Positions 11,894-32,000 of a stretch of 32,000 nt of DNA are shown here, piece after piece. The stretch covers positions 35,396-67,395 of the forward strand of contig NZ_QLIR01000011.1 of the NCBI RefSeq assembly GCF_003428155.1, in the 5' to 3' direction. The stretch is from Fastidiosibacter lacustris. GTDB lineage: Bacteria; Pseudomonadota; Gammaproteobacteria; Francisellales; Francisellaceae. Within the stretch, counting starts at the first letter, position 1, and each line of letters starts with the position of its first letter. A program made the translations under genes and the position numbers. The notes beneath the pieces are model-generated. The model searched no databases and was not told the DNA's origin. It saw only the letters and a program-made list of their open reading frames with translations.

Positions 11894-12256
11894 ATGTATA
11901 AACTTAAATTAAATGGTATAGCTTTAAATACTTATCTTGGTGTTTATGATTTTGAACAACAACAGATGCAAACCGTTCTAGTTGATGTAATTGTAGAGTT
12001 TAAAAATATTCCCAAAGCCTGCATAAGTGACGCACTTGAAGATACTTTTTGTTACGCGCAAATAAACGAAGTGTTAATGAGAACGGCCGCATCAAAACGT
12101 TATCAACTTATTGAGCATTTAGCGCAGTCTTTGCTAGATGCTTTGGTTTTACACCTTAATCATCCATTAAACGTCTATCTTGAGTTACATAAAACCCCAC
12201 CTCTAGAGAATGTAGTAAATGCAAGTTTTTGTGTGGAGTATATATGCCAAAAGTAG
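11894..12256 (+). CDS. folB: Dihydroneopterin aldolase
   Basis: 120 aa. LGVYDFEQQQ ... VLVDV ... CYAQI matches the FolB core as I recall it for E. coli FolB (GVYDWEQ ... SYADI). Sits directly upstream of folK-folP and overlaps it. Confidence 0.75.
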   Translation: MYKLKLNGIALNTYLGVYDFEQQQMQTVLVDVIVEFKNIPKACISDALEDTFCYAQINEVLMRTAASKRYQLIEHLAQSLLDALVLHLNHPLNVYLELHKTPPLENVVNASFCVEYICQK

Positions 12257-13542
12257 TGTTAGGATTAGGGAGTAATTTAGGTGCTAAGCTTGATTACTTA
12301 CGCAAAGCAGTTGATCTTATTGATAAACGTATAGCTAAAATCATTGCTACTTCAAAGATTTATCAAACATCAGCATTGTTGCCACAAAGTGCACCAGTAA
12401 GTTGGAATATAGATTACTATAATATGGCGCTTCTTATTGAAACAACGCTTGAACCACAAGCTCTTTTATTAGGGATTAAGGCAATTGAAACAGAAATGGG
12501 GCGTGATGCACTACATGCGTTTTGGTCACCTAGAGAAATTGATATTGATATTCTGTGTTATGGAGATGTAACTTTAAGTAGTGATGCTCTTAATATTCCC
12601 CATAAGGCATTATTGGAGCGTAATTTTGCGTTAAAACCTTTGTTAGAGGTTTACCCTAATTGGCGTTATCCAAATAAAGACATAGATTTATATGAATACT
12701 TAAAAAAAATGGAAAAATTGAAGCTTGCCCCTTTTACTTTATCAGCAACTCAAATCATGGCAATTGTAAACTTATCAATAGATTCATTTTCAGCGGAAGA
12801 AGCTCAGCCACCAACTGTCGATGAATTTGCAGGTTATGTTATGAGATTGATTGAAGAAGGAGCGGAAGTCATTGATTTAGGTACAGAGAGTACTAAACCA
12901 CAGGTAAAAGCAAAAACTGCTGAGAAAAATTGGCTCATGCTTCAGCCTTATTTAATTGTCTTAGATGAGTTGATAAAATATACTGGCTTATCAGTTACAC
13001 CTAAAGTGAGCATTGATACCTACCATGCGCAAGTTGTTGAAAATGCCTTGCACTATTCATGTGTGAATATGATTAACGACGTTTATGGTATAGAAGCCCA
13101 AGCTATTGCAAATCTTATTAAAGGCGCTGATATTAAATATGTCTTTATGCACCAATTAGGCAAAGCGGCGACAAACTACCTTGACATTAATCGCGATCCT
13201 GTTTTAGAAGTTATTGAGTATGCGCAACAAAGAATCGCGGATCTTATGTCGTGGGGGATGAAAAAAGAGCAATTAATATTTGATATAGGAATTGGTTTTG
13301 GTAAGCACGATTATCAAGCACGTGCCTTACTTAAGCATGTAGATAAAATTAAATCAGCGTTAGGCGTGGAAATACTGATTGGTCATTCGCGTAAGTCATC
13401 AGTTATGCGAGTGGTTGAAGGCAAAAGCAATTTATACAAAGATATTGCAACGGCAATGATTGCTCATGAGCTTATCCAAAAAAATGTGGATTATCTTCGT
13501 GTCCATAACGTTGATTTAACGAATATGGCAAGGCAGATATAA
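12244..13542 (+). CDS. folKP: Bifunctional HPPK - dihydropteroate synthase (FolK-FolP fusion)
   Basis: N-terminal HPPK motifs: VVLGLGSNLG, WSPREIDIDIL, IPH. C-terminal pterin-binding DHPS motifs in order: IMAIVNLSIDSFS, IDLGTESTKP, VSIDTY, MINDV, FDIGIGFGK, GHSRKS, LRVHNV. Start moved to ATG 12244 (MPKVV), not TTG 12229. It overlaps the folB stop by 13 nt. Confidence 0.85.
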   Translation: MPKVVLGLGSNLGAKLDYLRKAVDLIDKRIAKIIATSKIYQTSALLPQSAPVSWNIDYYNMALLIETTLEPQALLLGIKAIETEMGRDALHAFWSPREIDIDILCYGDVTLSSDALNIPHKALLERNFALKPLLEVYPNWRYPNKDIDLYEYLKKMEKLKLAPFTLSATQIMAIVNLSIDSFSAEEAQPPTVDEFAGYVMRLIEEGAEVIDLGTESTKPQVKAKTAEKNWLMLQPYLIVLDELIKYTGLSVTPKVSIDTYHAQVVENALHYSCVNMINDVYGIEAQAIANLIKGADIKYVFMHQLGKAATNYLDINRDPVLEVIEYAQQRIADLMSWGMKKEQLIFDIGIGFGKHDYQARALLKHVDKIKSALGVEILIGHSRKSSVMRVVEGKSNLYKDIATAMIAHELIQKNVDYLRVHNVDLTNMARQI

Positions 13543-22146: not shown

Positions 22147-22668
22147 TTAATAACAGTACTCAATTGCTTTGAAAATTCCCTGTATGATTTGAACAGGTGA
22201 AGGAGGGCACCCTTTGACAACTACATCCACTGGAATAATCCCTTGAATTCCTCCTTCAACCGCATAACTGTCTTTAAAAACGCCTCCACAATGCGCACAA
22301 TCACCTATAGCTAGAACTAACTTTGGATGAGGCATGGCCTCATAGGTTTTAACAAGCGCATCACGCATATTTTTGGTTATAGGACCTGTCACAAATAACA
22401 TGTCGGCATGACGGGGACTTGCAACAAATCGTATACCATAGCTCTCAAGGTTATAAAAGGGATTGTTAGTTGCATGAACTTCAAGTTCGCAGGCATTACA
22501 AGAGCCGGCATCCACCATACGAATAGCAAGTGCTTTACCAAAACGTTGAGCAATTCTTTTTTCAAGTATCTTGCCAACTATTTCTAGATCATCAATATCA
22601 TTAACTATAGGGTTTATTTTTTCACTTTTAATACCTGTTTTAAGTAACTTTTTTGTAAACTTCCACAT
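22147..22668 (-). CDS. Group-4 hydrogenase small-subunit / NuoB-like [4Fe-4S] protein of the Ehr-type complex
   Basis: 173 aa. Hydrogenase-style cluster motifs GSCNACELE, DMLFVTGPIT, AIGDCAHCGGVF and KGCPPSP give the four Cys of an N2-type cluster. GAGGA Shine-Dalgarno 9 nt upstream of the ATG. Start is 2 nt after the upstream stop. Confidence 0.85.
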   Translation of the reverse strand: MWKFTKKLLKTGIKSEKINPIVNDIDDLEIVGKILEKRIAQRFGKALAIRMVDAGSCNACELEVHATNNPFYNLESYGIRFVASPRHADMLFVTGPITKNMRDALVKTYEAMPHPKLVLAIGDCAHCGGVFKDSYAVEGGIQGIIPVDVVVKGCPPSPVQIIQGIFKAIEYCY

Positions 22669-22670
22669 GA

Positions 22671-24197
22671 TTAGCTGTCCTCACCACTGTAGCTTAAGTT
22701 AAAAGATTTATTAATAAGTGGAAAATCAGCAACGATATTATTCATAACAGCATGACTTAATGCAGGCCAGTTTTGCCATGAAGGATCGTGGAAATGGCAC
22801 CATGAAACTTTAGTATCATGAAGTTGGACTGCAATACATATAGGGCCTCTCCAACTCTCTACGCACATAATACTGATCTTTTCTGTTGAGGATTGATCTA
22901 TGTCAAGTGCTTGTGTACAGTTATTGAATCCTAATTGCAAAAATTGTTCAATCATATCAATGCTTTGTAAGCATTCACGAAAACGCACATATACGCGTGC
23001 AGCGACATCACCTGTTTCTGCCGTTATAGGTGTAAAATCAATTTCAGAATAAGGATAAAGTGTGCAGGATGCCCTGGCATCGATAGCAATGCCAGATGCC
23101 TTTGCGATTATACCTAAAACACCTAAAGATTGAGCAAGAGTATGCGTTAAAATACCGGTTGTTTTCAAGCGATCTTGAAGTCCATGGTGATCATGATAAA
23201 TCTGCTCTAATTGGAACAACTGCTTTTTTACATCATTAAGGTGGTTGAGTAAATCATGTACTATAGATTTATCCCACATAGTCATATACTGTTGTGGGGA
23301 GATGGCATCCATCATATATCGATGATGTGTTAGCAGTTTATTCTCACGTACAAGTTTTTCTTTTAAGATGGAGAATTGCATTGCTAAGCTGATAAAACCG
23401 GTGTCGTTAATAATAGCACCAATATCACCGATGTGGTTAATCAAGCGTTCGCGTTCAAGTAAAATAGCACGTATACATTTTGTTTTAGCATCTATTTCAA
23501 AGCCAAGCTGCTTCTCACAAGCAAGTGCAAAAGCATAAGCATAAGCTACAGTAGTGTCACCACTTACTCTTCCAAGTAAAGAAGCTGCTTCTGACATGCT
23601 TTTATTGATAAGTAAAGAATGAATGCCTTTATGTGTGTATCCCAATCGATCTTCTAGTTTTAAAATTCGCTCACCAACGATAGAAAAACGAAAGTGTCCA
23701 GGTTCGATAATTCCTGCATGCACAGGACCTACTGGAATTTCATGGACTCCTTCTCCTGAGACTTTGTTAAAAACATAATGTAATTTGGCAAAGCGACTTG
23801 ATTTGCTGTAGGGATTTAAAATTCCCATTTTGAAATGACCATGATTTAGCCATGCACGTTTATCTTTTGCTTTTTTTGTTGGAATTTTGGTTAAATCGTG
23901 GATAGCTCTGTGTAATCTCTCATTTATAGGAAAGGCTTCACTTAAATCAATAAGCATTGGTCGTTTTGGATTTAGTCGAGACACAATGCAGAGCCAGTAG
24001 GCTTGATAATAATACAATACATACCAGTTCGTTTCATTTGAAGAGGAGTCAAAAGCAATCCATTCTGTAAGCAAAAGACCATTTTGAGATTTAATTTCTT
24101 TAGCAAGAGGATATTGTAACCTAATATCAACAGATAAATATTGATAAGCCTTGATGTTATTAAAGTGTAAAAGATCATTCAGCATTGTTTTATTCAT
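22671..24197 (-). CDS. HycE/HyfG-like (NuoC-NuoD fusion) large-subunit homolog lacking the [NiFe] cysteine ligands
   Basis: 508 aa. Degenerate NuoC-like N-terminal part, then the group-4 large-subunit core (HEIPVGPVHAGIIEPGHFRF, LEDRLGYTHKGIH). The ligand motifs read RVSGDTTVAY and FNLSYSGEDS-stop instead of RxCGxCxxxH and DPCxxCxxR. No CxxC anywhere. ATGA overlap with the upstream gene. Confidence 0.85.
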   Translation of the reverse strand: MNKTMLNDLLHFNNIKAYQYLSVDIRLQYPLAKEIKSQNGLLLTEWIAFDSSSNETNWYVLYYYQAYWLCIVSRLNPKRPMLIDLSEAFPINERLHRAIHDLTKIPTKKAKDKRAWLNHGHFKMGILNPYSKSSRFAKLHYVFNKVSGEGVHEIPVGPVHAGIIEPGHFRFSIVGERILKLEDRLGYTHKGIHSLLINKSMSEAASLLGRVSGDTTVAYAYAFALACEKQLGFEIDAKTKCIRAILLERERLINHIGDIGAIINDTGFISLAMQFSILKEKLVRENKLLTHHRYMMDAISPQQYMTMWDKSIVHDLLNHLNDVKKQLFQLEQIYHDHHGLQDRLKTTGILTHTLAQSLGVLGIIAKASGIAIDARASCTLYPYSEIDFTPITAETGDVAARVYVRFRECLQSIDMIEQFLQLGFNNCTQALDIDQSSTEKISIMCVESWRGPICIAVQLHDTKVSWCHFHDPSWQNWPALSHAVMNNIVADFPLINKSFNLSYSGEDS

Positions 24198-25654
24198 GAC
24201 TTTCCACCTATGATGGAATATATAGCAGAATCAAGTAAGAAAATAGGCATATAAAGTCCTGCTATGATAACCAATATCAAATGAGCTCCCACTGTCCAGT
24301 AAATATGTTTTGTATTTTTTAAATGAGTGATGGGAGTGTTTAATTGTCCAAAAAACAATGGCTGAGTTTTTAATAGTATGGCTAAAAATGCGAGTATCAG
24401 TCCTACGACAAGCAAAATCATAAGACCAATATTAGCCTCCATTGCTGCTAGAATCAGTAGTAATTCACTTATAAACAATCCCGATGGTGGTAAACCAAGA
24501 ATAGCCAAAAAAGAGATTAAAAATAAACTTGCGGTTATAGGAGATTTTTCAAATAATGCACGAATTTTTTGTAGTACTTGAGTATGAAATTGCTGAATTA
24601 CTGTACCAGATATTAAGAGCAAAGCAGTTTTAACTAAGGCATGTATCCAGATGTGTAGTATCGCTGTAAGTAATGCAAGCCTGTTGCCAATTCCAATTGC
24701 AATGCTGATAAGTCCCATGTGTTCAATTGAAGAGTATGCTAACAAGCGATTAAGTGTTCGTTGGCGAAATAGTGATAGGGCTGCAAAAAATAAGCTGATA
24801 AAGCCAAAGGTTAAGAAAAGGTAACAAGGAAAATTAATTAAGCCTGCGTTGGCAAATAATAGCTTAAACTTGAGCAAGGCAAATAACGCTAAATTAAGCA
24901 AAGCGCCTGATGATAAGGCATTTACCATTGGGTATCCTTCGGCATAGGCATCTGGCAACCAATTGTGTAATGGGACGAATCCGACTTTAGTACCATAACC
25001 AACAAAAAGAAATACAAAGCTGATGCTTAATAATTTGGCAGGAATTTGAGAGATATTTGTCATTAATTTTGTCCATAGTAAGCCTTCTTCTCCCAGACCA
25101 TGAGTATAAGCACCAAAATATAAAATCACAGTACCAAGTAGTGCAAACCCAATACCTACGCCGCATAAAATCAAATATTTCCATGAAGCTTCTAGCGCTT
25201 GTGGGGTTTGTCTTAATCCGACTAATGCAATACTGGAGATAGTAGCAAGTTCCATGGCAATCCACATCATGCCGATATTATTACTGAGTAATACAATCAG
25301 CATGCCTAGCAAGAACAATTGGTAAGTCGTATGATAAAAGCGATAAACTAAAGGATGTAAATGTGTTTTATTTTCATTATCCAGATAGCTAATGCTATAA
25401 AAACTTGTGCTCATTCCAATAAAGCTGCTAAGTATAATAAAAAGGACATTCAGTTTGTCACACATAAACCAGTCTTTGAAAAAAAATAGTGCTGTATCTT
25501 CAACATATATTACATAGCCTAAAATAATGCTTATGATAAAGCTTAAACTGCATAATATAGCATTTACATGAGTCGCATATTTCCTGTTTTCTATCCAAGG
25601 CAATAGGACTAAAGCAATAACAGAAGGCAAGAGTAATAGCGTAATCAAGTTCAT
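24194..25654 (-). CDS. HyfF/HyfD-like antiporter-type membrane subunit (NuoM/N family)
   Basis: 486 aa with about 14 TM helices. Proton-conducting-transporter family pattern (GFVPLHNWLPDAYAEG, LAYSSIEHMG). ATGA overlaps at both ends. Confidence 0.8.
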   Translation of the reverse strand: MNLITLLLLPSVIALVLLPWIENRKYATHVNAILCSLSFIISIILGYVIYVEDTALFFFKDWFMCDKLNVLFIILSSFIGMSTSFYSISYLDNENKTHLHPLVYRFYHTTYQLFLLGMLIVLLSNNIGMMWIAMELATISSIALVGLRQTPQALEASWKYLILCGVGIGFALLGTVILYFGAYTHGLGEEGLLWTKLMTNISQIPAKLLSISFVFLFVGYGTKVGFVPLHNWLPDAYAEGYPMVNALSSGALLNLALFALLKFKLLFANAGLINFPCYLFLTFGFISLFFAALSLFRQRTLNRLLAYSSIEHMGLISIAIGIGNRLALLTAILHIWIHALVKTALLLISGTVIQQFHTQVLQKIRALFEKSPITASLFLISFLAILGLPPSGLFISELLLILAAMEANIGLMILLVVGLILAFLAILLKTQPLFFGQLNTPITHLKNTKHIYWTVGAHLILVIIAGLYMPIFLLDSAIYSIIGGKS

Positions 25655-26304
25655 ATACGCTCCTTTAGTTTCTCAAATAACTGAACTTGGAAGGAACCAT
25701 GCTCTTGCTGTATTCGGATTAAGAATAGTGTGAAAATCATAAAACCCATAAGGATATCAAAACTCATCCCAAGTTCGATTAGCCAAGGGAATCCTGTGCT
25801 TATCGCTGCGGCTAGAATAAAGATACTGTTTTCTAATACTAATAGACCCATTACTTGAGTGACAGTTTTTCTTCTAAAAGTAATGATTAATACAGCTACA
25901 AATGCATTGGCAAGTCCAAGTGAAAATCCTGAAATGTAGCGATGAAGCATACTGTTGACCAACTGCTGTCCTAAAATTAATGCCAAGAGAATAAGCGCAG
26001 ATGCTAGTAACAGTAGACTAGGCTTATTCAGTATTGGTTCAATACGTCCGGAAAGGTGTAAAAATTGAACTAATTTCCATAGTAAAAATGGTAAAAGAAT
26101 AACTTTGATGCCAATGGTAATAATTAAAGAAATAAATACTTCCATGCTTGGTGCATAGATCGTTTCTGTGAGTATGTAACTACTTAAAAGCACATTCTGA
26201 ATAATTAAAAGTTTGATTACATTCGTAATGTAAGATTGGATTAACATTAAACTACTACATAGTAGCATTGAACTTATCAAAAAAAGCAACCAACTATGAA
26301 TCAT
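25651..26304 (-). CDS. HyfE-like small membrane subunit (NuoK-related)
   Basis: 217 aa (E. coli HyfE is about this size) with about 7 TM helices. It occupies the hyfE slot between the HycD-like and HyfF-like genes. ATGA overlaps at both ends. Confidence 0.7.
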   Translation of the reverse strand: MIHSWLLFLISSMLLCSSLMLIQSYITNVIKLLIIQNVLLSSYILTETIYAPSMEVFISLIITIGIKVILLPFLLWKLVQFLHLSGRIEPILNKPSLLLLASALILLALILGQQLVNSMLHRYISGFSLGLANAFVAVLIITFRRKTVTQVMGLLVLENSIFILAAAISTGFPWLIELGMSFDILMGFMIFTLFLIRIQQEHGSFQVQLFEKLKERI

Positions 26305-27263
26305 GCTGTTGTTCCTATTAATTGTGTTAAAAGAATACCCAGAAAAGCAAGGAAAAGTGCTAAACCAAGGTACTCTGGTATTCTAAATATACGCACCTTA
26401 GTTTGTAGTGTTTCTGTAATTGCAAGTAGTGCCAATAATATAATAAGTTTGACTAAGGTTGTGATGAATCCAACTGTAATGGATAATAACGAAGTTTCTA
26501 CCGCTAAACCAAAAGGAAAAAACAAATTGATAAAGATCAATAAAAATAATTCCAACTTTAACGCATTACTCCATTCTATAGCGGCTAAATATCTCCCTGA
26601 ATATTCTAGTACCATTGCTTCATGTATCATGGTCAACTCTAAATGTGTGCTTGGATTATCAAAAGGAAATCGGGAGTTTTCAGCAAGCAAAATGATAGTA
26701 AATGCGCACAAAGAGAAAGCAAGGCTAGGGTACAGCATACTATGTTGGATCAAGCTAAAACTGATATGACCAAGCGTTAACCCATGTGTTATCAAGCCAA
26801 GGTTCAATAATACAAGCAGCAATATAGGTTCAACCAAGCAGGCAATAAACATCTCTCGTCTTGCGCCTAGTGAGCCAAACGCTGATCCAATATCCATGGC
26901 AGCAAGTATCATGCTTATTCGAGCGAGTGCTAATATACCAACTAAAACAATGACGTCTATGATCGATGTAAACAAGCCACGATAGAATATAAAAGGAGTG
27001 CTAAAAGCAAGTATACTTAAAGCACAAAAGTAGATAAAAGGAGTGTATTTAAATAGCCAGGATGCATTGTAAGGCAATATGGGTTCTTTGATTAAGAGCT
27101 TATAAAATACAAAATAAGGTTGAAACAGGGAAGAAGCGGTGCGATTTTGCAGCCAACATTTAAATACTTGTAGAAAACCTATTAGTAAAGGAGAAATTAC
27201 AATAATGAGTATACCTTGTAAAGCAAGTAGCAAAATTGTGGTTATTTCTGTGGTCATATCCAT
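26301..27263 (-). CDS. HycD/HyfC-like membrane subunit (NuoH family)
   Basis: 320 aa with about 8 TM helices. NuoH/HycD hallmark loop ENSRFPFDNPSTHLELTMIHEAMVLEYSG. A second in-frame ATG at 27257 would create an ATGA overlap with the upstream stop, like all other junctions. Confidence 0.82.
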   Translation of the reverse strand: MDMTTEITTILLLALQGILIIVISPLLIGFLQVFKCWLQNRTASSLFQPYFVFYKLLIKEPILPYNASWLFKYTPFIYFCALSILAFSTPFIFYRGLFTSIIDVIVLVGILALARISMILAAMDIGSAFGSLGARREMFIACLVEPILLLVLLNLGLITHGLTLGHISFSLIQHSMLYPSLAFSLCAFTIILLAENSRFPFDNPSTHLELTMIHEAMVLEYSGRYLAAIEWSNALKLELFLLIFINLFFPFGLAVETSLLSITVGFITTLVKLIILLALLAITETLQTKVRIFRIPEYLGLALFLAFLGILLTQLIGTTA

Positions 27264-29191
27264 AATACCAAGATGAGTAAAACAAGTAGCGTTAAGCCAA
27301 CGTAGGTCAAATAAACAGAAATTTTTCCTTGTTGAATCCAGCGTGTTATAAAAACAATCTTCCAGATAGCTTGTGTTATGGGTTTATAAAAAAAAGGCCA
27401 TATTTTTTCGGAAATATAAACAAAATAGTGAGGTTTATCACCATTGATATTGGATATATTAATTTTTACTTGAATCAATTTAGAGAAAATCTGTTTAAAT
27501 GGTTGGGAAAACCCCTCAGCAGAATCTTGCATACGTGAGTTAATGGAATCAAAGCCACATCCCCAGGTGGCATCTCTACGGAAGTGCTTATGGATCAAGG
27601 GGAAAATAAGTAACAAGCTTAAAATCATGATAAATGCTAACAGTAATGGAGCAAAATAATTACTGTTTGCCAAGGTTGAATGTGGAAATGAAATAGTGAA
27701 ACTACCCTTCCAAACAAGAGTGAATTTATCGGATATTGAGTTAATTACTTTTTGAATCATAGAGATAAATGGTGCAGGGTATAAACCAATTACGATCGTC
27801 CATATTGTAAGCCACAGTAGAGACACTCGCTCTAACAAATTGGCTGGTTTAGCATGTATTAGTTGAGACTCTCTGGGTTGACCTAAAAATGCAATGCCAA
27901 AAAACTTTACAGCGACAAAACCTGCTAAGGCAAATACCAACATACTTGTGGCAGCAATGACAATAGATAGTACAGCAAAGTTGAAATGCTCGAATGTTTG
28001 CTGTTTGAAAAAAAGCTGTAAATAAAGCCATTCGGAAATAAATCCACTGAATAATGGTAAGCCTGCCATTGCTAAGCAACCTGTCAATGCGCAAGCACTC
28101 ACCCATGGCATTTTTTGAATAAGCCCACCTAATTTTCCAATATTGCGTTCACCTGTTGCATGTAAAATTGAACCTGTGCAGAGAAAAAGTAAAGATTTAA
28201 ATAGGCTATGGCTTAAGCTATGCAATAAAACAATCAGCAAAGCGACGTTAGATAGCGTGTATTGTTGATATTGATAAAAAACAATAGCAAAACCTAGATT
28301 TAATACAATAAATCCCAAATTCTCTATGGAAGAATAGGCCAATAGTCGTTTCATATCGCTTTGTAGTGCAGCATGGAGGACGCCAATGAGCATGCTAAGT
28401 AATCCAATTGCAATAAATAAAAAACCCCACCATGATTGTTGCCATGGGAGGAGCCAGTAGAAACTAAAGCGAATGAGTCCATAAATCGCCGTTTTTAACA
28501 TAACACCGCTCATCAATGCAGAAATTGGGCTAGGAGCGGCAGGATGTGCTTCTGGTAACCAAATGTGCAATGGAAAAAGACCTGCCTTTGCACCAAATCC
28601 AATTAACATAAGAGTAAATACTAAATTAGCTAGAGGTAGGGCAAAATCACTGTGGTTTAATAGAAAAAAAGCGCTACTGATGCATAAAAAGCCAATATGT
28701 GCAATGCCTAAATATAAAAAACCTGCTTGTCGGACAACTTTAGCTGTGTTGCCGCATACTACTAGAAAATAAGAACTTAAACTCATTATCTCCCAAGCAA
28801 ATAGAAAGGTAAATGTGTTACTTGCACTCAATACCATAAGCATCCCAAGGACGAAAAAAGGGTAAGCTATATGAATAACTCTTTGATGTTTTAAGCTAAA
28901 GTGTCGGAAATAAGCTTGCCCAAACCCCGAAATAGCAACTGTTGACAGTCCTAACAAAAGCACAAAAAAGCGTGATAATTCATCTAGTTGAAATAAGAAA
29001 GTTAGATTTTCAGGTAGCAATGTAATTTCAAATGTTATGCTTATTAATTTCACGTAAAAAATAGCACTCATTATAATCAGTAAAGCGGCAATGATGGTTG
29101 CGTATCTAAAATGACTAAAAAAGCGACTCGGAAGCACAAATGAAAGGCATCCTAGCACAAGCCAAATGAATAATATTATATGTAATATCAT
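27254..29191 (-). CDS. HyfB/HycC-like antiporter-type membrane subunit (NuoL family)
   Basis: 645 aa. Antiporter-like core (GLFPLHIWLPEAHPAAPSPISALMSG, LAYSSIENLG). It also has the HyfB/HycC-specific C-terminal module containing TWGCGFD....MQDSAEGFSQPF. First gene of the operon. Confidence 0.85.
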   Translation of the reverse strand: MILHIILFIWLVLGCLSFVLPSRFFSHFRYATIIAALLIIMSAIFYVKLISITFEITLLPENLTFLFQLDELSRFFVLLLGLSTVAISGFGQAYFRHFSLKHQRVIHIAYPFFVLGMLMVLSASNTFTFLFAWEIMSLSSYFLVVCGNTAKVVRQAGFLYLGIAHIGFLCISSAFFLLNHSDFALPLANLVFTLMLIGFGAKAGLFPLHIWLPEAHPAAPSPISALMSGVMLKTAIYGLIRFSFYWLLPWQQSWWGFLFIAIGLLSMLIGVLHAALQSDMKRLLAYSSIENLGFIVLNLGFAIVFYQYQQYTLSNVALLIVLLHSLSHSLFKSLLFLCTGSILHATGERNIGKLGGLIQKMPWVSACALTGCLAMAGLPLFSGFISEWLYLQLFFKQQTFEHFNFAVLSIVIAATSMLVFALAGFVAVKFFGIAFLGQPRESQLIHAKPANLLERVSLLWLTIWTIVIGLYPAPFISMIQKVINSISDKFTLVWKGSFTISFPHSTLANSNYFAPLLLAFIMILSLLLIFPLIHKHFRRDATWGCGFDSINSRMQDSAEGFSQPFKQIFSKLIQVKINISNINGDKPHYFVYISEKIWPFFYKPITQAIWKIVFITRWIQQGKISVYLTYVGLTLLVLLILVLWI

Positions 29192-29286
29192 TTATGATAT
29201 GAGAAGACCTTAAACACACCGAGGTATTATAAGGTAAGCAGGTTTATTTGTATATTGAAAGTTAATTGAATTTCCCTAGAGCATTG

Positions 29287-30845: not shown

Positions 30846-32000
30846 TTATTTTTGACACTCTTGGTGATTTGGATTCCATATAATTTCATCGGTATTAAAA
30901 TTCATAAAGGCTTCCTGATGGAAATCATATGCTGACGAGGGTTCCTTATTACGACAAATAATCACAGACTTAAGTTTAGTAGGATCAATCTGATAAAAAG
31001 CTTGGTTACCAATCGTTGTAACACTATTTGGGATGACCACTGAAGTAAGCGGAGCCGCAGCAAAAGCCTCATCTCCAATAAATGTAACTTTATTAGGTAT
31101 TTTGATTGAAGTTAGGAATTTAGTCGAAAAAGCATAACTTTCAATCCTTTTAACGCTATCAGGTATCTTAACCGAAGCTAGTCTTGTGTTACCAAATAGA
31201 GATGAGCTGATAATTGTAATACCCTCAGGTAAGATAGCTGAAGTTAGCTGTACACCATAGAAAAAAGCAAGAGGTCCAATATCTGTTACACTATTAGGTA
31301 TAATTACTGTGGATAGCGTAGTGTTATAGTAAAAAGCTGCCTGACCAATTTTTCTCACACTCGCTGGGATCACAACAGAGGTTAGTCTATTCTCAAAAGC
31401 AGATGTACTAATTTCTGTTACACCATAGGGAATCACGACATCGGTTAGTGACCCTATATAATTGCTTAGAACGCCATTTTGAATAGTCATACCATCTGTA
31501 TTGTGAACTTGGATAGAAGTATAGAAGTGCTCTACTGTGCCATTTTTATCTTTAACGTCTATTCTAATTTTATGTTCACCCAGCTTAGTATTTGCCGTTG
31601 GTTTAAGTTTTATTGTTATATAGTTTTGATTTTGAGCACTCTCAAGTGTGACCCCAACAGAATTGTTTTGAGTTTCATCCGTTACTGTAATGGTGGGATC
31701 AGTAAAAGAACGGGTATACAGCTTAATCGTTGCTAGTTTAGCAAGATCGTTTACATCTACTGATCTGCCTTGTGTATTATCGATTGTGTCATAATAATAG
31801 ACAACGTCTTTGTATACTACTTCGCCATTACTCTTAATCGTAAAATCAGCAATGCTGTTTGATGCTAATAAATGCATTGAAGAATCCTTAAAACTGATAC
31901 TGCATGGCTCTTGATCAAGTAATGATTGACAGTTCACGCCAGTAAGTTCAGATTCACCTATTGTGAATGTAAGGTTCTCTAAATCACGCCCTGATACATT
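30846..32000 (-). CDS. BspA-type leucine-rich-repeat protein with an upstream Ig-like beta-sandwich region (partial; N-terminus outside the window)
   Basis: Seven or more 22-23-aa repeats of the form L(T/S)SVxIPxSVxxIGxxAF (aa 164-345 of the track ORF, nt about 30903-31448). The reading frame stays open from the GTG at 31937 to the window edge at 32000, so the true start is probably beyond the window. Confidence 0.75.
   Translation of the reverse strand, partial: NVSGRDLENLTFTIGESELTGVNCQSLLDQEPCSISFKDSSMHLLASNSIADFTIKSNGEVVYKDVVYYYDTIDNTQGRSVDVNDLAKLATIKLYTRSFTDPTITVTDETQNNSVGVTLESAQNQNYITIKLKPTANTKLGEHKIRIDVKDKNGTVEHFYTSIQVHNTDGMTIQNGVLSNYIGSLTDVVIPYGVTEISTSAFENRLTSVVIPASVRKIGQAAFYYNTTLSTVIIPNSVTDIGPLAFFYGVQLTSAILPEGITIISSSLFGNTRLASVKIPDSVKRIESYAFSTKFLTSIKIPNKVTFIGDEAFAAAPLTSVVIPNSVTTIGNQAFYQIDPTKLKSVIICRNKEPSSAYDFHQEAFMNFNTDEIIWNPNHQECQK

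Follow-up and report, generated by a model that had tools for sequence, protein, structure and literature searches.

We analyzed a 32-kb window from Fastidiosibacter lacustris (32,000 nucleotides of contig NZ_QLIR01000011.1; all positions below are those of this window), in which a six-gene operon on the minus strand, at 22147–29191, encodes relatives of the subunits of E. coli hydrogenase-4. Taken as a whole, the operon is best explained as encoding a self-contained, six-subunit, redox-coupled ion translocator of the Hyq/Ehr family, a reading to which we assign a probability of roughly 0.45. That its products make up a functional complex of this family, and not a [NiFe] hydrogenase, we regard as highly probable; that this complex works by the mechanism of a redox-coupled ion pump is put forward tentatively. 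Sequence comparisons point to a complex-I-like assembly of six subunits that is intact and co-translated. Because the C-terminal motif of the large subunit, the antiporter residues, the E-channel, the HyfE-like subunit, the ND3-like loop and the cluster cysteines are all conserved, we do not consider the complex to be a relic.

A six-gene operon of hydrogenase-4 type

A first-pass annotation, made from the DNA sequence alone, had described six minus-strand open reading frames in this region, and we recovered them with the same coordinates and lengths. These genes, and the features within and ahead of them that are used below, are as follows (aa, amino acids):

27254–29191, minus strand: HyfB/HyqB-like antiporter-like subunit with a fused ND3/NuoA-like C-terminal module (645 aa; PF00361, NF005086)
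26301–27263, minus strand: HycD/HyfC/NuoH-like membrane anchor (320 aa; PF00146)
25651–26304, minus strand: HyfE-like small membrane subunit (217 aa; weak match to NF008556)
24194–25654, minus strand: HyfF-like antiporter-like subunit (486 aa; PF00361, NF005045)
22671–24197, minus strand: large subunit, predicted NuoC::NuoD-type fusion like HycE/HyqG, without Ni-Fe ligands (508 aa; PF00346)
22147–22668, minus strand: small subunit, HycG/HyfI/NuoB-like, with one [4Fe-4S] site (173 aa; PF01058)
27467–27571, minus strand: ND3-type coupling loop in the C-terminus of the HyfB-like subunit, aa 541–575, TWGCGFD...RMQDSAEGFSQPF (from alignment to the W.CG[YF] module of HycC/HyfB)
23550–23570, minus strand: remnant of Ni-Fe motif L1, R210-V-S212-G-D214-T215-T216 of the large subunit (from alignment to HycE)
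22677–22700, minus strand: remnant of Ni-Fe motif L2, N500-L-S502-Y-S-G505-E-D507 of the large subunit (from alignment to HycE)
22612–22668, minus strand: predicted HycF/HyfH remnant, the N-terminal amphipathic helix aa 1–19 MWKFTKKLLKTGIKSEKIN, fused to the small subunit (from hhalign)
29226–29254, minus strand: promoter-like TATACA-17-TATAAT, 35 nt upstream of the first gene (10/12 consensus; weak evidence)

When the six proteins were run against Pfam and NCBIfam, as the annotation had proposed, they matched in gene order PF00361, PF00146, HyfE (NF008556, weakly), PF00361, PF00346 and PF01058; NCBIfam names the first product hydrogenase 4 subunit B and the fourth hydrogenase 4 subunit F. The three ATGA start/stop overlaps read as had been described, a fourth (27254–27257) arises if the ATG at 27257 is used, and the last junction is a 2-nt gap preceded by GAGGA. 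The start of the HyfB-like gene is called differently in RefSeq, where the F. lacustris protein (WP_157966623.1) has 599 aa as compared with 645 aa for the open reading frame in the window. NCBI product names given to cassette proteins are 'Ni,Fe-hydrogenase III large subunit' and 'NuoB family protein'.

To the Hyf, Hyc and Nuo proteins of E. coli MG1655, which served as references, the six proteins were all nearest through their Hyf/Hyc counterparts and clearly farther from Nuo. Identity was 35% to HyfB, 30% to HyfC (27% to HycD), 24% to HyfE and 38.5% to HyfF for the first four subunits, 29% to HyfG (27% to HycE) for the large subunit and 40% to HyfI (38.5% to HycG) for the small subunit. 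These best matches, together with the hydrogenase-type CxxC spacing in the small subunit, bear out the earlier claim of descent from hydrogenase-4 and not from nuo. Judged by these alignments, the operon corresponds to hyfABCDEFGHI from which A, D and the Fe-S domain of H are missing. One part of the earlier description had to be amended: the C-terminal TWGCGFD... module, taken to be specific to HyfB, is also present in HycC and is an ND3/NuoA-like fused module that contains the coupling loop. HycC residues 500–608 have been described as homologous to ND3 (PMC9474812).

For the membrane subunits, we examined the residues highlighted in the structure paper on formate hydrogenlyase (FHL) (PMC9474812). 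In the HyfB-like subunit, E134, K202, K233, H324, H328, K332 and E387 were conserved in 42–53 of 53 relatives. The corresponding residues of the HyfF-like subunit, E135, K223, N254 (as in HyfF), H334, H338, K342 and E397, were invariant (69–70 of 70 relatives). These sets include the Glu of transmembrane helix (TM) 5, the TM7 Lys, the TM11 His/His/Lys and the TM12 Glu, which in the HyfB-like subunit are kept in 53/53 relatives except for the first TM11 histidine, H324 (42/53); the two patterns match those of HyfB and HyfF. The E-channel of the NuoH-like subunit (R115, E137, E145, E195, D202, E209, E215 and E220) was invariant or nearly so in 62 relatives, with an invariant His (H207) as the counterpart of HycD E201. 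Similarly, the membrane glutamates E158 and E177 of the HyfE-like subunit (HyfE E159 and E178) were invariant in 61 relatives, and the consensus of the ND3-like loop, W.CG...RMQDTAEGFGQP, is at least 90% conserved in the family. With all three coupling loops and the known ion-translocation residues strongly conserved, the coupling machinery is intact. As the annotation had stated, the complex keeps two antiporter-like subunits, a NuoH-like subunit and one Fe-S site (PF01058, PF00146 and two copies of PF00361 in one operon).

This conservation bears directly on the possibility that the operon is a functionless, decaying remnant of a hydrogenase operon. 'Candidatus Nebulobacter yamunensis', an obligate endosymbiont of Euplotes aediculatus whose 2.1-Mb genome is nearly identical to that of the cultivable F. 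lacustris (Thiotrichales), has 191 predicted pseudogenes (PMC9837558), and the loss of the catalytic metal site and of the ferredoxin domain, described below, would also fit such decay. However, the six open reading frames are intact and ATGA-coupled, and the cassette proteins are identical in the endosymbiont and in free-living F. lacustris. In addition, relatives were found in at least 597 species-level genomes, mostly of aerobic or facultative Beta- and Gammaproteobacteria, with near-invariant functional residues. To judge from this conservation the remnant reading is effectively refuted, and we find it barely credible.

The large-subunit pocket and the Hyq/Ehr family

Among proteins of known structure, the large subunit has its best sequence match in 7z0s_E (HycE; E 2e-31). 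An AlphaFold (AF2) monomer model was built from a 40-sequence family alignment and reached a mean predicted local distance difference test score (pLDDT) of 80.7 and a predicted template-modelling score (pTM) of 0.85. Because the fold of this model matches HycE best (7z0s_E, template-modelling score 0.81) and fused NuoCD chains next, the large subunit is predicted to be a NuoC::NuoD-type fusion like HycE.

The annotation had claimed that this subunit lacks the ligands of the Ni-Fe site, and alignment to HycE agrees: C241, C244, C531 and C534 of HycE are replaced by S212, T215, S502 and G505, the HycE motif RVCGICGF reading RVSGDTTV in the window and DPCYSC reading NLSYSG. The large subunit returned a longer list of matches, of which we analyzed the best 120. 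The Ni-Fe cysteines are replaced across these relatives at both L1 and L2, save at the first position, where 10 of the 120 have Cys (window S212, codon 23562–23564); the other three positions are always substituted. Because the four ligands are replaced family-wide, the complex would not be a [NiFe] hydrogenase.

Other residues around the former metal site are also altered. Between the two former L1 ligands there is a new Asp, D214 (the position of HycE I243), which is invariant (120/120), and the canopy Asp of HycE, D529, is Asn both in the window (N500) and in 120/120 relatives. At its C-terminus the large subunit reads DFPLINKSFNLSYSG.D, a motif that hardly varies among the best 120 relatives, even at 42% overall identity. 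Kept and invariant are the Glu of the β1–β2 loop, E165 (HycE E193), the proton-path residues H255 and E408, and the canopy Arg, R450; the second acid of the β1–β2 loop is Ile (I164) in the window. The quinone ligands of complex I are replaced as well, NuoCD Y273 by G213 (119/120) and NuoCD H224 by I164 (120/120). Marreiros et al. 2013 are said to have described Ehr as lacking the quinone-ligating residues of complex I. No Cys column is conserved in the 120-member family except C467 (72/120). These alignments suggest that the former Ni-Fe site has been rebuilt as a cysteine-free polar pocket, formed by S212, D214, T215, T216, N254, N500, S502 and Y503, which would still be served by the hydrogenase proton path of E165, H255, E408 and R450.

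The Ehr label given to the operon in the annotation agrees with published descriptions (PMC6349859, PMC10284858, PMC7894505), and a group-4-like large subunit without the N- and C-terminal CxxC ligands was found both in the window and in the 120 relatives. Papers from 2019–2025 describe Ehr as group-4 related, without Ni-Fe ligands and of unknown function (PMC6349859, PMC10284858, PMC10432482, PMC12342949, PMC6728331), and Ehr subunits of Geobacter have been detected as protein (PMC7894505). The annotation had further stated that no substrate, partner or role had been shown for the category. This did not hold, since genetics and physiology have been reported for Hyq of Azorhizobium caulinodans (PMC2650096, PMC2930871, PMC3357923), which is cited beside ehr in PMC4758237.

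Hyq, which also occurs in other alphaproteobacterial diazotrophs, was studied by Ng 2009 (PMC2650096), Ciccolella 2010 (PMC2930871) and Sprecher 2012 (PMC3357923). The A. caulinodans 'endo-hydrogenase' operon hyqRBCEFGI has six structural genes in the order B-C-E-F-G-I, without hyfA and hyfD (PMC2650096). HyqG is a NuoC::D fusion of 504 aa without both CxxC motifs, and HyqI has Cys55/58/112/152 (PMC3357923). The hyq operon needs NifA for its expression, and without it diazotrophic growth is slower (PMC2650096); in nodules, H2 is evolved (H2 recycling is lost) by hup hyq double mutants but not by single mutants (PMC2930871); and hyq is required for about 80% of the H2 evolved under microaerobic conditions (PMC3357923). 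The authors infer an H2:ubiquinone oxidoreductase, with a Ni-Fe site that they call 'uncertain, if not unlikely' and a catalytic site that is speculative (PMC3357923). These claims are genetic and physiological, made without purified enzyme (PMC2650096, PMC2930871, PMC3357923).

Like Hyq, the window has the gene order B-C-E-F-G-I without hyfA, hyfD and hyfH, a large subunit of about 504–508 aa and a short small subunit with four cysteines. A tblastn search of plasmids gave family matches in Rhizobium (31 records), Azospirillum (16), Burkholderia and Cupriavidus, including the megaplasmid of C. metallidurans CH34. In the R. leguminosarum operon (locus L093), a helix-turn-helix (HTH) regulator is followed by B-C-E-F-G-I, and the 504-aa large subunit ends DFPLC491NKSFNC497SYSGHDL, as HyqG is described. 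Identity between the window and R. leguminosarum Hyq is 36, 42, 23, 41, 41 and 53% (B, C, E, F, G and I), about that of betaproteobacterial relatives. Additionally, 13 residues that make up a pocket signature (I164, E165, S212, D214, N254, H255, E408, R450, N500, S502, Y503, G505 and D507) are identical in Rhizobium, Azospirillum, CH34 and the window.

The window differs from Hyq at three cysteines, A. caulinodans C258, C491 and C497, which are described as fully conserved in the HyqG family (PMC3357923). Azospirillum has Cys at all three positions, and R. leguminosarum C259, C491 and C497 correspond to I263, I495 and L501 in the window; across the beta/gamma clade these positions are Gly (85/120), Ile (120/120) and Leu (119/120). 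Further differences from Hyq are that the window has no hyqR, that the cassette lies between metK (95 nt upstream) and pheT in a window that has no nif genes (no search for a NifA box was made), and that the host is not reported to fix nitrogen. From these sequences, Hyq-type H2 phenotypes appear less plausible for the window's complex, and we would place it in the Hyq/Ehr family as a member of a subclade without the sole plausible ligands for a substitute metal site. Hyq/Ehr is a family already described, known for some 15 to 20 years, and the operon is not a new system.

Applied to the window, the claim made for Azorhizobium Hyq would be an H2:quinone oxidoreductase in which H2 reacts at a non-canonical site of the large subunit and exchanges electrons with ubiquinone via the single cluster. 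The operon architecture and pocket residues shared with Rhizobium and Azospirillum Hyq speak for this, as do the A. caulinodans hup hyq double mutants, whose nodules no longer recycle H2, and the roughly 80% of microaerobic H2 evolution cited above (PMC2930871, PMC3357923). However, the window's large subunit has neither the four Ni-Fe cysteines nor the three HyqG cysteines, the sole candidate ligands for a substitute metal; C467 is the only column of its 120-member family in which Cys is conserved at all; and no hyp, nickel or hyqR gene lies in the window. In addition, no purified enzyme was ever used to demonstrate Hyq activity, the authors of that work doubt a Ni-Fe site (PMC3357923), and expression of Nitrospira Ehr is not raised by H2 (PMC12342949). 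A single cluster would also be required to work with an H2 site and with a quinone site, and by comparison with complex I the two would occupy the same place. H2 chemistry in the beta/gamma subclade thus looks unlikely, and as an account of the window's complex we hold the endo-hydrogenase to be very improbable.

Some genomes have a second, divergent cassette whose large subunit is also cysteine-less at the Ni-Fe positions. Such Ehr-type cassettes were seen in several Betaproteobacteria, often in tandem (L031:28–3501, L068:1–4717, L054:11002–13958, L055:11864–13873, L020:16254–21273 and L009:1990–4232 among our loci). Their large subunits are 29–38% identical to that of the window and have Cys at the position of window I495, as in alphaproteobacterial HyqG; their small subunits also have a HycF-like N-terminus.

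The small subunit and the loss of the ferredoxin domain

The best match of the small subunit among proteins of known structure is 7z0s_G (E 3.6e-35). C57, C60, C124 and C154 are kept in 73, 73, 73 and 72 of 73 relatives, with the CxxC spacing of hydrogenases, unlike the adjacent Cys-Cys of complex I. Homology to HycG begins at residue 27. Ahead of it the protein starts MWKFTKKLLKTGIKSEK; across the family the consensus reads M[WY]x[IL]LKQIA[KR]TG[IT]xTE..P.

HycF of FHL has at its extreme N-terminus a short amphipathic helix at the membrane surface that every structure of the superfamily shows and that binds cardiolipin (PMC9474812). With a HycF/HyfH profile made of 62 N-termini, hhalign aligned residues 1–19 of the small subunit to residues 1–19 of HycF with a score of 31.7 (P 1.6e-6), a score reached by 0 of 300 column shuffles (mean 8.9, maximum 15.0). 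When full-length HycF and Ehr small-subunit profiles were compared, the sole local match was again between residues 1–19 of each (P 2.9e-4), and the native N-termini of HycG/HyfI did not match the helix segment (P 0.23). The hydrophobic moment of aa 1–19 is 0.64, as in HycF, compared with 0.14–0.26 for HycG/HyfI. An earlier search for the HycF remnant with a 24-residue HMM against about 6,600 open reading frames was not significant (HyfH E 1.1, HycF E 3.9). The family profile with its shuffle controls, in contrast, makes a convincing case that aa 1–19 are a surviving piece of HycF/HyfH.

The annotation had held that the operon has no ferredoxin subunit. This is right for the Fe-S domain, which is absent, and needs qualification for the first 19 residues of the small subunit, the HycF/HyfH remnant. 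No CxxCxxC motif was present in any open stretch of at least 60 aa in the 32-kb window, and the 2x[4Fe-4S] subunit of group 4 hydrogenases (HycF/HyfH/EchF/MbhN) appears not to be encoded there.

A small-subunit search of 50%-identity representatives gave many short forms along with natural HycF::HycG fusions: two CxxCxxCxxxC motifs are intact in five of the fusions and one is intact in six, while another 12 have only a CxxCxxC remnant. Intact 2x[4Fe-4S] fusions are found at L087:8001–8912, L090:8001–8900 and L091:5263–6006, and a decayed one with a single CxxCxxC at L089:394–1254, all in loci with Ehr-type large subunits. The first three loci have the gene order of the window, with the fusion gene at the end of the operon, and the same pocket as the window; the contig of L089 is too short to show gene order. 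These four fusions look like intermediates toward the short form in the window. Because both intact and decayed fusions occur in Ehr operons, the ferredoxin domain was lost within the Ehr family, by decay and deletion in the fused gene, with only the membrane-surface helix kept. In an unbootstrapped neighbor-joining tree of small subunits the decayed fusions adjoin the short-form clade of the window, and we tentatively suggest more than one loss of the domain. The founding Ehr papers aside (Coppi 2005; Marreiros 2013), we know of no earlier report of a ferredoxin subunit reduced to a fused 19-residue helix via extant intermediates. Separately, some 'long' small-subunit entries in the public protein library (P0261, P0295 and P0265) are gene-call chimeras that carry the large-subunit C-terminus or a NuoH-like piece in frame, and length alone would mistake them for fusions.

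To look beyond the operon itself, we compared 80 loci drawn from the matches in at least 597 genomes and clustered the neighboring genes in 55 of them. The order B-C-E-F-G-I is kept in every locus of sufficient length. No neighbor recurs across the 55 loci, the most frequent being metG (18/55); metG and apbC were considered as conserved partners and rejected as lineage synteny only. Because no neighbor recurs and the flanks of a 59%-identical relative are wholly different from those in the window, the cassette appears to be self-contained. The annotation had reported that the operon has no 2x[4Fe-4S] subunit or donor module and that the 32-kb window has no hyp, fdh or ferredoxin gene. Both statements were upheld, the first also for the 55 related loci, and hyqR, hydrogenase endopeptidase, nickel and nif genes were likewise not found in the window.

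Electron input might instead depend on a partner encoded elsewhere, such as a formate dehydrogenase with NuoE/F-like subunits, without which the complex would not work. An FDH-Ehr (formate dehydrogenase-Ehr) complex has been proposed for Margulisbacteria and Saganbacteria (PMC6349859), and Ehr subunits of Geobacter were more common on formate than in H2-containing conditions (PMC7894505). However, across the 55 loci the surroundings of the cassette hold no recurrent fdh, hycB or nuoEF-like gene, none is in the window, and the donor module of FHL binds via HycF and HycB (PMC9474812), the former having had its domain deleted in the window. We consider such a remote partner improbable.

The same losses bear on a second alternative, a Mrp-like cation/proton antiporter whose peripheral arm has no electron turnover and whose cluster is structural or senses redox state and thereby gates ion flux. 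The ancestral electron path has lost the Ni-Fe site at one end and the HycF Fe-S domain at the other, no donor gene is linked in the 55 loci, and the antiporter residues are unimpaired. A ferredoxin domain that first decays and is then deleted, as in this family, is also what would be expected under relaxed selection on electron input. On the other hand, the cluster cysteines, E165/H255/E408/R450 and D214/T216/N500 vary as little as the membrane residues do among relatives down to 40% identity, which is beyond the needs of a scaffold, and Mrp antiporters need no peripheral arm to function (PMC7684303). An antiporter that is gated by redox state, or independent of it, is a serious rival, although on balance we think it unlikely.

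Proposed mechanism, genomic setting and known systems

The annotation had suggested a redox-driven or redox-gated ion translocator, a plausible reading that agrees with the conserved coupling residues. In the redox-coupled ion translocator that we favor, electrons would pass between a cytoplasmic carrier and the single [4Fe-4S] cluster. Because there is no HycF relay, the carrier would have to dock directly at this proximal cluster, on the surface once covered by HycF. Electrons from the cluster would reach an acceptor in the pocket at the interface of the large and NuoH-like subunits, most plausibly a membrane quinone, and changes in charge or protonation at D214/E165 would drive the movement of H+ or Na+ via the E-channel and the HyfB- and HyfF-like subunits, or be driven by it in the reverse direction. 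Because a three-cluster wire leads to the same pocket in the long-form relatives, the pocket would be expected to take up or give electrons. The proton path to the pocket is retained in the window's family, unlike in the sulfane reductase MBS (PMC7684303), and orthologous Hyq has respiratory, quinone-linked phenotypes (PMC2650096, PMC2930871, PMC3357923). A quinone is the most plausible membrane partner because the Hyq authors inferred the same and because E165 and D214 lie one residue after the positions of the His and Tyr ligands of complex I.

Several points weigh against this proposal. The canonical quinone ligands of complex I are missing, Y273 being Gly and H224 Ile, and the canopy Asp, which is Asn in 120/120 members, is described as strictly conserved across hydrogenases and complex I and as required for quinone reduction (PMC9474812). 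Some Ehr hosts reportedly have no identifiable quinone biosynthesis genes (PMC6349859). The β1–β2 loop region of the monomer model has a pLDDT below 50, the pocket being known from alignment and monomer only, and no gene in the neighborhood of the 55 loci points to a donor, an acceptor or an ion. Lastly, we know of no complex of the superfamily that works without a NuoI/HycF-type relay, and direct docking would be unprecedented.

In its most specific form, the proposal is that among the redox-driven ion pumps of the complex I superfamily the beta/gamma short form is the smallest, with six subunits, one [4Fe-4S] cluster, no NuoI/HycF relay and a metal-free, carboxylate-lined pocket (D214/E165). 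It could be run as a ferredoxin/flavodoxin:quinone oxidoreductase or, reversed, as a generator of low-potential reductant driven by the proton motive force. We rate this form as somewhat unlikely; if true, the reverse mode would give an alternative reason for the presence of alphaproteobacterial hyq in the nif regulon.

Whatever the mechanism, Ehr/Hyq is widespread. The species-level genomes counted above, at least 597, include Paraburkholderia, Cupriavidus, Rhizobium and Azospirillum; Nitrospira, Geobacter and M. tuberculosis are further hosts known from the literature. The genes are routinely annotated 'hydrogenase' or 'NADH dehydrogenase' and their reaction is unknown or disputed; metabolic reconstructions should not count them as hydrogenases. 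Common architecture and pocket residues now join the Ehr and Hyq literatures. A large beta/gamma subclade is without even the three cysteines that could carry the H2 activity claimed for Hyq. Within the family, the loss of the ferredoxin subunit can be traced as decay and deletion in a fused HycF::HycG gene that left a membrane-surface helix. Cultivable or tractable hosts include F. lacustris (2.1-Mb genome), C. metallidurans CH34 and Paraburkholderia.

As the annotation had it, the operon is flanked by pheT and metK. metK lies on the same strand as the cassette, 95 nt (29192–29286) from its first gene. No terminator-like hairpin was detected in this gap, although the scan is uninformative in AT-rich DNA, and promoter-like sites such as the one listed above are not enriched over shuffles in this AT-rich region, the counts from promoter and terminator scans being equal to those from shuffles. 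Transcriptional read-through from metK into the cassette is possible from this layout. There is no gene for a small DNA-binding protein ahead of the cassette in the window. In R. leguminosarum the HTH protein (L093:3250–3639) stands at the position of hyqR, and an open reading frame like ribbon-helix-helix proteins lies about 250 nt upstream of the cassette in nine betaproteobacterial loci (e.g. L031:4276–4608), among them some Burkholderiales. Regulation of the cassette seems to be lineage-specific.

The remainder of the window contains pyrG, purL, an ABC-F protein, fumC, dacB, folB, folK-folP, an ABC transporter, nadE, an MFS transporter, pheS, pheT and metK. Outside the cassette and a leucine-rich-repeat protein, these are housekeeping genes. 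The latter, a 363-aa BspA-type protein (PF13306) at 30846–31937 on the minus strand, is a candidate host-interaction protein. At 12229–13542 on the plus strand, folK and folP are fused in one open reading frame with an HPPK domain (PF01288) and a pterin-binding domain (PF00809). A scan of the 32-kb window against Rfam returned no element.

The nearest characterized homologue of each subunit is found in E. coli hydrogenase-4/FHL-2 (hyfABCDEFGHI) and FHL-1 (Hyc; PDB 7z0s). The window and E. coli FHL have in common the E-channel, the ND3-like fusion, the Glu of the β1–β2 loop and the proton path. In contrast to FHL, the window has no Ni-Fe cysteines, Asn in place of the canopy Asp, and no HyfA/HycB, HyfD or FdhF, and its HyfH/HycF is cut down to the 19-residue N-terminal helix on the small subunit. 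The Ehr complexes of Geobacter sulfurreducens (GSU0739-45), Nitrospira, ammonia-oxidising archaea and M. tuberculosis (Rv0081-87) resemble that of the window by published description (PMC7894505, PMC10284858, PMC12342949, PMC10432482, PMC6728331). They share with it NuoB-like, NuoL-like, NuoH-like and HyfE-like subunits and a group-4-like large subunit without Ni-Fe ligands.

The MBS/Mbx sulfane reductase of Pyrococcus furiosus (PDB 6u8y) is, like Ehr, a group-4 derivative without a Ni-Fe site, and it works without that site, coupled to ion translocation (PMC7684303). In MBS, a three-Cys proximal cluster is itself the catalyst, the pocket is hydrophobic and has no proton path, the large subunit retains two cysteines, and a NuoI-like subunit, MbsN, is present (PMC7684303). 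Unlike MBS, the window has four cluster cysteines with hydrogenase spacing, a pocket that is predicted to be polar, a retained proton path and no NuoI-type domain. The four-Cys cluster, the polar pocket and the retained proton path make an MBS-like mechanism of catalysis at a three-Cys cluster unlikely, and on these sequence grounds we rejected it.

In comparison with complex I, the window's complex has CxxC and not adjacent Cys-Cys at the position of cluster N2, and its operon lacks NuoI, NuoEFG and a third antiporter-like subunit. Neither the Tyr nor the His ligand of quinone is present, and the antiporter-like subunits follow HyfB/HycC sequences, not NuoL/M/N. Both complex I and photosynthetic NDH-1 share with the window a core of B, C/D and H subunits, an A-like loop and K/J-like and L/M/N-like subunits, as well as a cysteine-less large subunit, and quinone is the inferred partner that the window's complex would have in common with complex I.

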